35,035 nt of DNA from a virus (lineage: Duplodnaviria; Caudoviricetes): the IMG/VR virus record IMGVR_UViG_3300021124_000016, positions 1-35,035 of that record, one strand, 5' to 3'. Numbering within the stretch: position 1 is the first letter of the stretch; each line of letters starts with the position of its first letter. The notes beneath the pieces were generated by a model. The model was not told the origin of the DNA, ran no database searches, and worked only from the letters and a program-made list of their open reading frames with translations. Made by a program: the position numbers and the translations under genes. Positions 286 through 33,103 of the stretch are shown here, in pieces.

Positions 286-611
286 CTAGTAACTCTTTCT
301 ATTTGTCTGTTGTTAGCTTGTTCTGTGCGCCAGGTTTCCCAACGCATTTCTGCACTTCTAATCTGCCATTTTAATGTTTCTGCTTGCTCTGTAGCTATTC
401 CTATAGCCTTACATAACTCTTGGTATTCAGGGCTACGGTATGCTTCCATTTCTTTAGCGGCAATGGATGCCCCATCCGCTTGCGCCATCTTGATTGCTTT
501 AAGACTATGCTTAAAGGCTTCGAGTTCCGCCAATTGACCCCTAGCCTTCGCATACTCAGGAGCTTTTTGATAGATAAATTCAATCGCATCATTAGGGTTA
601 TATTCTTTCAT
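282..611 (-). CDS. hypothetical helical/coiled-coil phage protein
   Basis: 109 aa ORF with GGAG RBS; ATG directly follows the stop of 612..1427. Confidence 0.8.
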   Translation of the reverse strand: MKEYNPNDAIEFIYQKAPEYAKARGQLAELEAFKHSLKAIKMAQADGASIAAKEMEAYRSPEYQELCKAIGIATEQAETLKWQIRSAEMRWETWRTEQANNRQIERVTR

Positions 612-1431
612 TTAACAATCTCCATGCTGTTGCTGCACAAAGTGGCACTTGTCCATTTCCAAGGGCTTTAAGTCTGTCCACCCTATCGGCCAACCCATCA
701 ACCACTCTACCCACGCTGGGTTCAAATTTCCAGAAGTCGGGTGAACTACCATACTGAGGGTAATTTGTTTGCCAATTTCTAATCTTCTTTGTATTGATGG
801 ATTGCTCATGTTTCCCCTGTTTTTCCAATCTTCCGCATTGGGTGTTGGAAATACTCTTTTTTTCAATGCTTTCCGACTGTTGCTGCCCCCATCTATTCCT
901 GTTGTGCATGGCGTGTGAAAGAAATCTAGATTGTTCGGTACTTTTTCCAACAATCCATATTCTGTCCCTTCTATGATTTGCTCCAACATCGGCTGCTGAA
1001 AGCACTCCCCATTCCGCATTGAACCCCAACGAGGCCAGGTCTGCAAGGACTCGTTCAAGTCCTCTAAAAGTGAGCATTGGACTGTTCTCAATGAATGTGT
1101 ATTTTGGTCGTACCTCGCCAATAATCCTTGCCATCTCTTTCCACATTCCTGATCGTTGTCCATCAAGTCCATCGCCTTTTCCTGCTGCGCTGATGTCTTG
1201 ACATGGAAATCCCCCAGATACAACGTCAACAATTCCTGCCCAAGGTTTTCCATCAAAGGTTTGAACGTCATCCCAAATTGGGAAAGTCGGGAGAAGTCCA
1301 TCATTTTGTCTGGCGCACAATACGCTTGCTGGATATGCTTCCCATTCAACGGCACAGACTGTTCGCCATCCAAGCAAATATCCCCCAAGTATTCCTCCAC
1401 CAGCGCCTGCGAAAAGAGCCAACTCATTCAT
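598..1431 (-). CDS. C5 cytosine DNA methyltransferase, alpha-type polypeptide (motifs I-VIII and X)
   Basis: LFAGAGG (I), VEW (II), DDV (III), GGFPCQDIS (IV), ENSP (VI), HRRDRIWIVG (VIII), LKALGNGQVP (X). No motif IX in this frame. Confidence 0.93.
   Translation of the reverse strand: MNELALFAGAGGGILGGYLLGWRTVCAVEWEAYPASVLCARQNDGLLPTFPIWDDVQTFDGKPWAGIVDVVSGGFPCQDISAAGKGDGLDGQRSGMWKEMARIIGEVRPKYTFIENSPMLTFRGLERVLADLASLGFNAEWGVLSAADVGANHRRDRIWIVGKSTEQSRFLSHAMHNRNRWGQQQSESIEKKSISNTQCGRLEKQGKHEQSINTKKIRNWQTNYPQYGSSPDFWKFEPSVGRVVDGLADRVDRLKALGNGQVPLCAATAWRLLNERI
612..1427 (-). CDS. overlapping +1-frame ORF; probable beta subunit of the C5 methyltransferase (TRD-like segments plus motif IX)
   Basis: 271 stop-free codons nested in the MTase gene. 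Contains FHTP/FPTPNAEDWK segments and LNPAWVEWLMGWPIGWT (motif IX-like). Starts at the second ATG of ATGAATG; stop abuts the next gene's ATG. Confidence 0.8.
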   Translation of the reverse strand: MSWLFSQALVEEYLGDICLDGEQSVPLNGKHIQQAYCAPDKMMDFSRLSQFGMTFKPLMENLGQELLTLYLGDFHVKTSAQQEKAMDLMDNDQECGKRWQGLLARYDQNTHSLRTVQCSLLEDLNESLQTWPRWGSMRNGECFQQPMLEQIIEGTEYGLLEKVPNNLDFFHTPCTTGIDGGSNSRKALKKRVFPTPNAEDWKNRGNMSNPSIQRRLEIGKQITLSMVVHPTSGNLNPAWVEWLMGWPIGWTDLKPLEMDKCHFVQQQHGDC

Positions 1432-1585: not shown

Positions 1586-1752
1586 CCTTTTTCCCCTTTG
1601 TTTCCAGCTTTCCAAGCTGTATAAAAATCTTGCAATAATTTTTCGTCTAATTCATATTTACTTATATACAACCTAAACTTTTGCAATCCCCATTCGTGCC
1701 GCCATTTGCACAACTGTCTTACTGCACACTCATGTTTAACTTGCTCATACAT
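1540..1752 (-). CDS. hypothetical protein
   Basis: 70 aa ORF in operon orientation, overlapping both neighbours. Confidence 0.6.
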   Translation of the reverse strand: MYEQVKHECAVRQLCKWRHEWGLQKFRLYISKYELDEKLLQDFYTAWKAGNKGEKGCLRGLLSQQQGLDI

Positions 1753-2090
1753 TTCTTTTTAAGAGTTTCGTATGTATCGTAACCATTACCCAAGATACCA
1801 AGCTCTTTTGCTTTTGCAACAATTCCATCATTGCTAAACATCCATCTTTTATCAATCTTTTCTTTCTTGGGTTCTATGACCAATTCATCTTCCCAGCGTT
1901 CTTGATTAAGCCAAGTAGCTGCATGAGGTATAAATTCTAATGCAGTTTCTTTAGCTTTCCAATATTGACAATGGTTTGCAATTGCTTTAGCAGCTTGTAG
2001 TTGTTGTTCTTCTGTTAATCTTGCCCAAACTTTTTTTGCTGCTGCTTTTGCTACTTTTCTTGGATACATCATCCAAAATTCATCAAACAT
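1719..2090 (-). CDS. replication-initiator C-terminal-domain-like protein (no N-terminal HTH)
   Basis: FDEFWMMYPRKVAKAAAKKVW...FIPHAATWLNQERWEDE is the pattern of phage replisome-organiser C-terminal domains. RBS AGGGGGAA; located downstream of the Cro-like gene. Confidence 0.7.
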   Translation of the reverse strand: MFDEFWMMYPRKVAKAAAKKVWARLTEEQQLQAAKAIANHCQYWKAKETALEFIPHAATWLNQERWEDELVIEPKKEKIDKRWMFSNDGIVAKAKELGILGNGYDTYETLKKKCMSKLNMSVQ

Positions 2091-2129
2091 AAGTTCCCCC
2101 TTAGTTTTAATTAATACTGTAGTTACTTA

Positions 2130-2640: not shown

Positions 2641-2668
2641 TTGACACCTATGTAATTATGCTTACAAT
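2641..2668 (+). promoter_or_regulatory. rightward sigma70-type promoter
   Basis: TTGACA-16 bp-TACAAT upstream of the recombination operon. Confidence 0.7.
2651..2666. promoter_or_regulatory. palindromic operator 2 (TGTAA-N6-TTACA)
   Basis: TGTAATTATGCTTACA covers the rightward spacer and -10 box. Confidence 0.7.
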
Positions 2669-2710
2669 CAATCTTATAGCAATTTCGCTATGTATTTTCG
2701 GGGGAACGAA

Positions 2711-3842: not shown

Positions 3843-4081
3843 TGACCTGTAAAGCCTGTAAGTTTTTTGTATTTAACCAAAACGATATGATGGGAGCTTG
3901 CAAGCTCAATCCTGTCGTAGTGAATAAATTGCCAAAAGATTGGTGCGGTCAAGAAATACCAGCAGAGTATGAGGCTACAGTTATTCCTGATGCGCCTGTA
4001 GTAGAAGTTGTATACGATATAAACACGGATGAAGTAAAACCAAAAAGGGGAAGAAAAAATGCTAATAAAGGACAACAGTAG
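3842..4081 (+). CDS. small four-Cys (metal-binding) protein
   Basis: CKAC...GAC...WCG; TAATG coupling. Confidence 0.7.
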   Translation: MTCKACKFFVFNQNDMMGACKLNPVVVNKLPKDWCGQEIPAEYEATVIPDAPVVEVVYDINTDEVKPKRGRKNANKGQQ

Positions 4082-4826
4082 TGAACAAGGTCACTGGTAT
4101 GACAAGGATGGCAATCCAGCCTACGAAATCATTGGCGCAAACGGCAAACAAAGGAACACAACCTTACGAGATGCTAAAAAACTCGGTTTATTGCCCTCCG
4201 TTACAACCATCTTGGGAGTCGCAGCTAAACCAGGACTTGACCGATGGAAACAAGAACAGGCCATACTCGCTGCACTTACATTACCTCGCTTAGAGGATGA
4301 AGAAGAATCTGCTTGGCTTAGTCGTGTTTTAAGCGATTCTAAGGCCCAAGGCAGAGAAGCAGCAGATCGAGGCACATTGATTCATGGAGTTCTGGAATTG
4401 TTCTTTGATGGCATTTTGCTTGAATCTGTGCCCGACTATTGCCGTAACGCAGAAAACGCCTTAAAAGCCACTTTTGGCAATCGCCTGTGGATTCCTGAGA
4501 AGTCAGCTAGTCATGAGCTAGGATTTGCTGGGAAAGTGGATTTACACGCTAAAGGCGATAAGGTTAAAGGCATACCTGGCGTGGTTTGCGATTTTAAGAC
4601 TAAAGAAATCCCCTTGGAAAAGGTCGTTCCATACGAGGATCATATCATGCAGATCGCTGCCTACCGTGAATTGCTAGGTTTGCCAGATGCTCGTTGCGCC
4701 ATTATGTTTGTCAACGGTTTGACAAATGAAGTAAAACTATGTGAGATTGAAGAAGCAGAGCTACAAAAAGGCCTTAAATGCTTTTTTCATCTTTTGCGTT
4801 TCTATCAACTCAAGTCTGGTCTATAA
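4059..4826 (+). CDS. PD-(D/E)XK exonuclease (Cas4/RecB-like phage recombination nuclease)
   Basis: PSVTTIL, RGTLIH, E...AGKVD...DFKT, QIAAY motifs; with ERF and SSB. Confidence 0.88.
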   Translation: MLIKDNSSEQGHWYDKDGNPAYEIIGANGKQRNTTLRDAKKLGLLPSVTTILGVAAKPGLDRWKQEQAILAALTLPRLEDEEESAWLSRVLSDSKAQGREAADRGTLIHGVLELFFDGILLESVPDYCRNAENALKATFGNRLWIPEKSASHELGFAGKVDLHAKGDKVKGIPGVVCDFKTKEIPLEKVVPYEDHIMQIAAYRELLGLPDARCAIMFVNGLTNEVKLCEIEEAELQKGLKCFFHLLRFYQLKSGL

Positions 4827-4832
4827 TATTCA

Positions 4833-4888
4833 TGGGGCTGGCTTGGTTTCCCCCGACCATCGCATCCTTCCGTGAGGAGTCAGCCCCA
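4833..4888 (+). ncRNA. candidate small RNA, three-way junction with C-rich anti-Shine-Dalgarno loop
   Basis: Outer stem TGGGGCTGGCT/AGTCAGCCCCA; inner hairpins TGGT-TTCCCCCG-ACCA and CCT-TCCGTG-AGG; perfect TATAAT at 4822-4827 just upstream. Confidence 0.6.
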
Positions 4889-4966
4889 CCCTAATGTTGC
4901 AAAAAAGATACATATTAGGGTTTCCCCTAGTTATACAGAACAAAAAACTTCAATAAATTACTTACA

Positions 4967-5041
4967 TCAGGTCACCGACACTATTCAGCTCTATGGCTCG
5001 TTGAGATTTCAGACTAAAAAGACTCTGACCTGACTTTTTTT
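4967..5041 (+). promoter_or_regulatory. structured leader or attenuator-like element
   Basis: TCAGGTCA (4967-4974)/TGACCTGA (5026-5033) inverted repeat enclosing 51 nt, followed by C then T7. Confidence 0.45.
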
Positions 5042-5056
5042 AACTTAGGGGGATTT

Positions 5057-5131
5057 ATGAAATACATTGAATGGATTGGCGTTTTACTGCTAGGTATGTT
5101 GTTAGGATCAATGTTCGGATGGGGGTTCTAA
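5057..5131 (+). CDS. 24-aa hydrophobic single-TM peptide
   Basis: MKYIEWIGVLLLGMLLGSMFGWGF*; RBS AGGGGGA; stop abuts ATG 5132. Confidence 0.7.
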   Translation: MKYIEWIGVLLLGMLLGSMFGWGF

Positions 5132-5380
5132 ATGGTTATGCCAACTGAATACGCAACACCAGAAACCAAGACTTATAAATGCTACAAGGTAGGCGAAGTT
5201 TTGTTTGTGCCTCACTACAATAATCCTGGCATTTATATTGGCCCAGCTACTAGGCAAGAAACTGGGTTTATCAAGGGTAAATACACAGCGCAATTGTTTT
5301 ATGCCCATGAGCTTTTAATGATGGGCGCTAGGGAAGTAACTGAACAACTTTGGGTAACATCAGGGAGGGATGCAAAATGA
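5132..5380 (+). CDS. hypothetical protein
   Basis: 82 aa, tightly coupled to both neighbours. Confidence 0.7.
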   Translation: MVMPTEYATPETKTYKCYKVGEVLFVPHYNNPGIYIGPATRQETGFIKGKYTAQLFYAHELLMMGAREVTEQLWVTSGRDAK

Positions 5381-32782: not shown

Positions 32783-33103
32783 TTATTCCCCATCTACCCA
32801 GCAAACGTCTTGCCAGCTCATTAAAAGACACTTTTCACCATTATGGTTAATAGGTGTGAATTTCAAATATTCCTCTTTGGGATCGTCATTCATAGTGCCA
32901 AAACGCACCCGTTGACCTACTTCAACAGGCATTGCTTCTCGTCTTGTGGTTGACAATCTCTTGCCAGGCCCTACTGCGACTACTGTTCCCATATTCTCTG
33001 CTTCTTTATTGTTTACAAGAATTACAGAACTTAAAACACGAACATCTGGGCGGACTATTATCTTGTCCCCCAGAGGTTTAAAAGTTACAATTTCATCAGC
33101 CAT
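32783..33103 (-). CDS. groES: co-chaperonin GroES (Cpn10) homologue
   Basis: FKPLGDKIIV...GTVVAVGPG...VEVGQRVRF. Confidence 0.9.
   Translation of the reverse strand: MADEIVTFKPLGDKIIVRPDVRVLSSVILVNNKEAENMGTVVAVGPGKRLSTTRREAMPVEVGQRVRFGTMNDDPKEEYLKFTPINHNGEKCLLMSWQDVCWVDGE

Follow-up and report, generated by a model that had tools for sequence, protein, structure and literature searches.

A phage RNA with a C-run loop that co-varies with early-gene ribosome-binding sites: a putative trans-acting repressor

In phages P1 and P7, the loops of the c4 RNA pair at ribosome-binding sites (RBSs) and block translation, and sequence differences give rise to specificity groups, as described in the c4 passages of PMC12197685. 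Both c4 and the CI RNA of P4 are RNase P substrates (excerpt of PMC5499578), and the P4 CI RNA shuts off the phage's own replication genes via short complementary sites (excerpt of PMC4825925). Each of these known phage antisense repressors addresses one operon. C-rich loops are a feature of bacterial sRNAs that include RNAIII, RsaE, and the cuckoo RNAs. In another, 6C of mycobacteria, the C-rich loops bind several mRNAs by G-C pairs without RNA chaperones (in the relevant sections of PMC6486639). Finally, cluster K mycobacteriophages repeat a motif termed SAS at the RBSs of a subset of genes, and the authors left open whether its binder is a host or phage RNA or a protein (in the part of PMC3203893 that treats the motif).

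In the window, by which we mean the complete virus record of 35,035 nt that was analyzed, we observe a conserved structured RNA that is likely expressed, that carries a run of C residues in one loop, and that, judging from sequence comparisons, probably represses, in trans, the translation of early genes of its own phage. Like c4, it is a short structured phage RNA with a loop complementary to RBSs of its own phage, which here co-vary with the loop, and its anatomy (a long terminal stem that opens with G+1 and leaves ACC unpaired at the 3′ end) resembles that of an RNase P substrate and would be compatible with one. Unlike c4, which targets a single mRNA, that of the antirepressor gene ant, the loop is matched by the Shine–Dalgarno (SD) sequences of 3–9 early genes on two transcripts; the code here is one of run length, and no CI, antirepressor, or integrase is evident. 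Neither for the window's copy nor for those of 30 related loci does any Rfam family, C4 included, reach its gathering score, and none of the matches with E ≤ 10 at 4600–5200 is to C4. Nor do we find an antirepressor-operon target together with a CI-type repressor (22 genomes; 58 ORFs of the window), or a target for the second loop. By analogy with P4 CI, this would be a short phage RNA acting on genes of its own phage through short complementary sites. The CI RNA, however, causes premature transcription termination in the lysogen at seqA and seqC, which flank its own gene, whereas here the complementary sites are the SD sequences of genes scattered over the two strands, and there is no sign of lysogeny. 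With the bacterial sRNAs, it shares an exposed C-rich loop complementary to the G-rich SD regions of several mRNAs, but those are chromosomal regulators of host genes, whereas this RNA is phage-encoded and its RBS class is private and changes with the loop. There is no Rfam match to 6C, an actinobacterial RNA with two six-C loops, and we usually observe one loop of 3–5 C. As with SAS, a phage-specific RBS motif is repeated before a subset of genes, but the 13-bp SAS is unrelated and has no partner known from PMC3203893, whereas here a candidate RNA partner co-varies with the motif.

By ORF annotation, the window combines a lambdoid early region with P22-like head and ejection genes. The operon downstream of the rightward promoter consists of a small gene, Erf, SSB, and the exonuclease, with the RNA at its end, while the leftward transcript runs through the Cro-like gene, a Betaproteobacteria-1 RNA, the initiator-like gene, and a methyltransferase (Table 1). 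No second repressor gene lies beside the Cro-like gene between the divergent promoters of the window. The presumed ATG of the Cro-like gene sits 7 nt past the −10 element TAAGAT, and because the gene is thus apparently leaderless, it would offer the loop no RBS to block. The core pattern of the Betaproteobacteria-1 RNA matches an estimated ~660 viral stretches, and the family appears from its sequence context to be an element of phage leftward early operons; taken alone, this RNA hints at a betaproteobacterial host. The methyltransferase ORF (598–1431, minus strand) is overlapped along its full length by a second frame on the same strand (612–1427, 271 aa), and a GroES-like co-chaperonin is phage-encoded at 32783–33103 (minus strand; PHROG 3188, E = 6e-11).

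Table 1. Features of the window referred to in the text, with positions, strands, and supporting evidence.
Feature	Position	Strand	Evidence or remark
G4 RBS of 48-aa leftward gene (1439-1585)	1593..1596	-	predicted secondary target
Replication-initiator-like gene	1719-2090	-	PHROG 270, E 2e-18
G5 RBS (GGGGGAA) of initiator-like gene	2094..2100	-	on the opposite transcript
Betaproteobacteria-1 RNA (RF02932)	2347-2224	-	Rfam, 95.5 bits
Cro-like HTH gene	2358-2597 (ATG 2597)	-	PHROG 35 transcriptional repressor, E 1e-9
Leftward promoter	TTGCAA 2633-2628, 17 nt, TAAGAT 2610-2605	-	sequence
Rightward early promoter, TTGACA-16-TACAAT	2641..2668	+	11/12 match to consensus
RBS of first rightward early gene (ORF 2711-2923)	2698..2706	+	best predicted loop-1 target
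G4 run, RBS of exonuclease gene	4047-4050	+	
Exonuclease gene, immediately 5′ of the RNA	4059..4826	+	PHROG 298 exonuclease, E 4e-17
-10-like hexamer TATAAT	4822..4827	+	likely promoter element; no conserved -35
Predicted small RNA, ~55 nt	4834..4891	+	terminal stem P1, two hairpins, unpaired 3′ ACC
P1, long terminal stem	4834-4843 with 4878-4887	+	
Loop 1, UCCCCC	4849..4854	+	exposed address loop; unpaired probability 0.91-0.99
Hairpin 2, CCUUCCGUGAGG	4866..4877	+	
Unpaired 3′ ACC of the RNA	4888-4890	+	
Stem TCAGGTCA ... TGACCTGA, then U-tract	4966-5042	+	just before RBS of 24-aa peptide
G5 RBS (GGGGGA) of 24-aa peptide (ORF 5057-5131)	5048..5053	+	
G5 run before ORF 5132-5380	5121..5125	+	weaker predicted target

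An earlier note on this DNA had placed a three-way junction on the plus strand shortly after a perfect TATAAT, and both details hold: the fold scores z = −3.23, and 6 nt separate the hexamer from G4834. Against shuffles, z is −2.83 on the plus strand and +0.25 on the minus strand. The note had also described a 9-nt loop antisense to an RBS. We confirm that TTCCCCCGA at 4848–4856 is the exact 9-nt complement of TCGGGGGAA, which occurs once on the plus strand, at 2698–2706, and nowhere else in the window, but only the 6 nt from U4849 to C4854 are predicted to be unpaired. The exposed loop is thus 6 nt rather than 9, because U4848, G4855, and A4856 are predicted to lie mostly in the P2 stem. From composition alone, the chance of such a 9-mer is ~0.13 genome-wide and ~8e-4 within an RBS interval, the latter value being too low because RBSs are G-rich. 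Hairpin 2 is near-invariant in clade 1, takes on different loop types in other clades, and has no conserved phage RBS target in 15 genomes. Two of its loop variants, UCCGUG and CACGGA (the window at 4866–4877 versus clade 3/4 loci), are mutual reverse complements.

Several other identities were considered for this element. A tRNA or tmRNA gene or fragment was rejected, as ARAGORN finds 0 genes in the window and the weak match to the tmRNA model covers an acceptor-like stem only (14.5 bits against a cut-off of 47). An attP site was set aside given that no tyrosine integrase was found, and an HDV-like or theta ribozyme was dismissed by eye from its topology, in that the 3′ strand of P1 does not follow the first hairpin.

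The RNA is present in 63 of 69 viral loci selected by exonuclease protein search (62 fitting the strict pattern and one with a variant loop 2), while the remaining six are cut by contig ends and stop too early. The carriers form a family of ~35-kb freshwater phages in which the RNA is placed after the exonuclease gene. Wider searches with an exonuclease alignment, two distant exonucleases, the Betaproteobacteria-1 pattern, and RNA patterns yielded 53 distinct RNA sequences sharing one plan: a purine start (usually G), a terminal stem of 7–15 bp, a pyrimidine-loop hairpin, a second hairpin or bulge, and then an unpaired ACC (UCC in clade 5). Among 23 distinct P1 stems, positions 1–7 each display 2–5 pair types, such that the sequence varies while pairing is kept; as these stems were chosen by pairing, only the variation counts, and seven loci gave no stem. 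The 3′ end is ACC in 18 of the 23 and UCC in five, the search having required one of the two. The P2 stem has been rebuilt with different sequence around the retained pyrimidine loop. In a 14-row alignment of clade 1, all 168 of 168 cells pair, with two-sided change in one pair only. We found no description of this RNA in the literature, where the supplements of large screens (PMC10690425, PMC5737381) were covered in part, and its motifs are absent from the searchable supplements of Fremin 2023 (PMC10690425). The element is real and apparently undescribed, and it may possibly be listed as an unnamed candidate in large RNA-motif screens.

The neighborhood of the RNA varies among relatives. An insertion of ~480 nt separates the exonuclease from the RNA in L038, L041–L043, L146, L177, L196, and L757; where an HNH gene has inserted after the exonuclease, the RNA stands 3′ of the HNH gene. 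The L038 insertion holds a 159-aa ORF that we take to be HNH-like. L477 has three G4 RBSs and, ~6 kb from a Betaproteobacteria-1 motif, a comparable three-way junction whose loop is C4. The RNA is therefore not tied to the exonuclease, as L477 carries it without a detectable homolog of the nuclease.

The region past the exonuclease holds further RNA modules. A second conserved one, GGGCGTTAAGCCGCC ... GCGGCTTT ... GCCC, lies 60–250 nt past the exonuclease stop, forms an apparent pseudoknot, and is very common in clades 2–4 (L243–L319, L469–L533, L735–L759); Rfam returns no match to it in the loci scanned. Small hairpins past the stop in L243–L294 and L026–L029 have loop-E-like GAAA/RAGUA internal loops along with variable inserts and ACC or AAC ends, and a UCCUUCACGGGA hairpin occurs in the same region. 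Together these post-exonuclease hairpins make up a cassette-like small-RNA island, which contains several further modules without an Rfam match as well as Rfam-detected tRNA genes (L026 5893–5965, L037 5832–5904, L295 5843–5915, L311 5750–5822) whose anticodon, read by eye, is GTT (Asn). In the window, the stem before the RBS of the 24-aa peptide has an outer part that is conserved and an interior that is variable in relatives, with a fold z that is not significant; it could be a regulated terminator or another small RNA.

How the RNA might be produced is suggested by the hexamer, which overlaps the last sense codon of the exonuclease and its TAA stop. Of the 89 distinct upstream sequences compared, 70 have a TAnnnT that precedes G+1 by 5–8 nt, and no −35 element is conserved. 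Its spacing to G+1 holds while the offset of the stop codon shifts between −4, −5, −7, and −8, and we therefore reject the hexamer as a pure stop-codon artefact. The hexamer is nevertheless missing in 19 of the 89 sequences and, after the HNH insertion in L038, again overlaps a stop, with a −10-like hexamer found on both sides of that insertion. The RNA may thus be made from a −10-type promoter in the stop region of the exonuclease, excised from the early operon, or both; the hexamer suggests a primary 5′ end rather than RNase P processing.

Within the window, the predicted loop duplex at the RBS of the first rightward gene (−17.1 kcal/mol) is the strongest among 56 called starts, with a net energy of −8.4 after opening costs. 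The G5 sites that had been pointed out before the initiator-like gene and the 24-aa ORF are likewise present (Table 1), with computed loop duplexes of −14.0 and −13.2. At all three sites, the duplex with the 16S tail is weaker (−8.6 for the first gene, −10.2 for the initiator, and −9.3 for the peptide), while at most late genes, the 16S duplex exceeds that of the loop. In the scan of the window, 12 of the 56 starts fall below −3 kcal/mol, among them three late or middle genes and two starts that are probably mis-called, and the site with the best net energy, at ORF 5377, is reached via another part of the RNA (4862–4870). G4 or G5 runs also occur at a few late or middle genes (14758, 23795, 32455), and GGGGGAA occurs within three coding regions (2555 on the minus, 9169 on the plus, and 20177 on the minus strand). 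The 24-aa peptide belongs to a conserved family (60 clade-1 ORFs). The first rightward gene, which the earlier note had taken as the defining target, does not hold up in that role: although all of these loci have a C5 loop, its RBS is G5 in only 26 of 58 clade-1 and 0 of 35 clade-2 loci, some starts in this count being mis-called. Complementarity over 9 nt to the first gene is a lineage-specific feature.

What is shared across lineages is instead a correspondence of run lengths, which bears out the covariation of loop and target RBS that had been proposed as a check. C5 loops are found in clades 1 and 2 and in L474; C4 loops in clade 4 and in L665, L667, L675, and L695; C3 loops in most of clade 5; and a C6 loop in L527. 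Loops of this kind are missing from clades 3 and 6 and from L295/L311. Among distinct early RBSs of C5 loci, G5A, AG4A, and AG3A number 104, 5, and 3 of 267 in clade 2 and 91, 42, and 35 of 579 in clade 1. The corresponding counts with a C4 loop are 6, 70, and 7 of 268 in clade 4 and 0, 9, and 4 of 47 in clade 5, whereas the C3 loci of clade 5 give 0, 10, and 24 of 117. The loop-less clades have few of any kind (4, 8, and 17 of 853 in clade 3; 3, 2, and 0 of 83 in clade 6). Gene starts in these counts come from a custom script that favors SD-like sequence, and the RBS classes were refined post hoc; 13 distant loci were excluded beforehand (12 with a gene directly after the exonuclease, plus L466, which does not fit and is treated below). 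For clade 4, the G4 prediction was set down from the loop before tabulation, at which point one G4 site was already visible.

At the level of loci, the modal G-run of early RBSs equals the C-run of the loop in 36 of 42 non-redundant C3–C5 loci, with four ties and two misses, while among the loop-less loci, 27 of 32 show a single G-run RBS or none. These belong to 75 non-redundant loci drawn from 221 with at least eight called genes, and L527 (C6) stands outside the 42-locus count. At the level of lineages, the match holds in 7 of the 8 that bear a loop (permutation p = 0.006) and in 10 of 11 when loop-less lineages are included (p = 2.5e-5). The lineages were delimited by eye on a FastTree tree of the exonuclease gene alone, in genomes that are mosaic, and L474, L667, and L096, being ties or variants, did not enter the count. 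The sample holds ~8 independent loop-bearing lineages. The exonuclease RBS alone follows the code in three groups (G4 in 21/21 clade-4, G5 in 34/36 clade-2, and G3 in 9/10 C3 loci), but in clade 1 it is off code, with G4 in 59 of 68 C5 loci. Loop and RBS switch within clade 5 (L675, L665), and L482, whose scaffold is nearly that of the window, has the loop CCCCUU with three G4 and no G5 RBSs. There are also exceptions: L527 pairs a C6 loop with five G4 and no G5 RBSs, L083 and L096 are misses, and L474, L667, L189, and L025 are weak or tied. Covariation of the flanking bases among C5 loops is weak, and the match available to an exposed loop is short, at 6–8 nt. In L466 (MW202674.1), we observe a repeated AUAGGUGA RBS before several early genes on both strands; its own C-rich-loop RNA fails to match AUAGGUGA, and no matching loop was found in the 6.5 kb examined.

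The correspondence is confined to early genes. The cognate RBS class precedes 36 of 129 early and 1 of 209 late genes in seven C5 genomes, 18 of 77 and 0 of 117 in four C4 genomes, and 4 of 18 and 0 of 32 in one C3 genome, whereas in loop-less genomes, all three classes pooled amount to 8 of 136 early and 7 of 192 late genes (20 genomes in all, with G011 excluded for a terminal duplication and G020 for want of a terminase marker). Late genes mostly have ordinary SD sequences, as had been noted, with AGGA, GGAG, or GAGG in 64 of 122 cases in four clade-1 genomes. A difference between hosts in SD preference does not explain the pattern because late-gene AGGA rates are alike in all groups (C5 79/209, C4 39/117, C3 13/32, loop-less 78/192). 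The code extends to leftward genes on the opposite strand (G3 5/18, G4 30/123, G5 65/251; loop-less 13/366), which rules out a hairpin acting in cis on the rightward mRNA; as matching RBSs include opposite-strand genes, any action would be in trans.

The comparisons speak with unusual clarity for an address code that links loop and RBS, and trans-acting repression of early genes is the reading we consider probable. A G-run would remain usable as an SD sequence, since G-U wobble allows the 16S tail to pair with it. The C-run loop would bind the same run by full G-C pairs, more tightly than the 16S tail, and would mismatch the AGGA/GGAG of late genes and presumably also of host genes. By covering G-run RBSs in trans, the loop would block translation initiation, such that accumulation of the RNA would lower the output of the leading early-operon genes (the recombination module, the initiator, and small membrane peptides), while the leaderless Cro-like gene and late genes would be spared. 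The outcome would be negative feedback or an early-to-late timer in a phage that shows neither integrase nor CI, and given that the early operon ends with the RNA, feedback shut-off or timing is the simplest role. As a side effect, superinfecting phages that share the same code would be silenced, which could explain why the code has diverged.

The same pairing could alternatively serve immunity as its main role, with the RNA keeping a non-integrated prophage or carrier silent, excluding phages of the same code, and standing in for CI. This reading, which extends the earlier suggestion that the RNA replaces a missing CI, accords with a lambdoid early region whose divergent promoters flank a Cro-like gene and no CI gene, and with discrete code classes of the kind expected of immunity groups; c4 also underlies P1/P7 heteroimmunity, binding around the ant RBS (in the c4 passages of PMC12197685). 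Yet no tyrosine integrase is found in any of 22 genomes, comprising the window and 21 near-complete relatives (controls positive in 14/14), and no S24-type repressor in the same 22 (controls positive in 9/14). As these include seven genomes without a C-run loop, the lack of CI is family-wide, with or without the RNA. No serine integrase, partition gene, or antirepressor is annotated among the 58 window ORFs scanned, and when species-representative genomes are searched with the exonuclease, the closest matches fall on short contigs of MAGs from mixed taxa and not inside host chromosomes. Nothing indicates a lysogenic state in these phages, and because loop-less relatives lack CI as well, we regard immunity in place of CI as unlikely. 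Of the original proposal, then, a small structured RNA that addresses a class of early RBSs is supported by covariation and by the early-only distribution, while the replacement of CI is not.

Complementarity gives pairing and not the sign of its effect, and the RNA could in principle help rather than repress, by stabilizing early mRNAs or by serving as an adaptor (loop 1 to the mRNA, loop 2 to the ribosome or a protein) that favors phage messages. Loop 2 is indeed conserved yet lacks a phage RBS target, and the site is borne by essential genes such as the initiator. The paired site, however, is the SD sequence, 4–9 nt from the start codon. An RNA bound at the SD itself should obstruct the 30S subunit, and such obstruction is expected here because that is where the pairing falls. 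Highly expressed late genes moreover avoid the site, and the C-rich loops of 6C bind mRNA targets (in the relevant sections of PMC6486639), and we consider a helper role rather improbable.

Slightly more doubtful still is that the RNA has no function in trans and is a terminator or 3′ stabilizer of the exonuclease mRNA, its match to RBSs stemming from shared ancestry or from DNA-level copying of G/C runs. The RNA is invariably preceded by a stop codon where the recombination operon ends, the independent loop-bearing lineages in the sample number only about 8, and RBS style is inherited within clades. But the stem is not called by a terminator scan and has no U-tract directly 3′ of it, the −10-like hexamer keeps its spacing in most upstream sequences, and the loop is the complement of the RBSs rather than a copy. 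The switches inside clade 5, and leftward genes that obey the code from 3–4 kb away, also speak against it. It is highly improbable that the RNA is aimed chiefly at host mRNAs, or at competing phages whose RBSs have G-runs, with the phage's own early RBSs as secondary targets: bacterial C-rich-loop sRNAs do have multiple targets (PMC6486639, in the sections concerned), but this would leave the lockstep change of the phage's own early RBSs and loop unexplained.

If repression through the RBS is correct, one RNA would seem to reach an entire class of genes by way of their SD sequences. It is possible, and we put this forward tentatively, that these phages use a private SD dialect of G3, G4, or G5 runs in which one 55-nt RNA is an RNA-only master switch and phage groups are mutually blind. 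The dialect would still be read by the host ribosome, while the RNA would read it across the whole early regulon, and joint changes of run length in loop and site would amount to an address code that can evolve and that serves both self-shutoff and the exclusion of superinfecting phages, without CI. The natural loop variants are a ready-made 3 × 3 specificity matrix and suggest a minimal collection of mutually orthogonal switches for translation. The RNA is also a candidate explanation for the repetition, in some phages, of an unusual RBS ahead of part of their genes, as posed by the mycobacteriophage SAS, and, if true, would represent a new means by which lambdoid-type phages that lack CI and integrase control the timing or extent of early expression.
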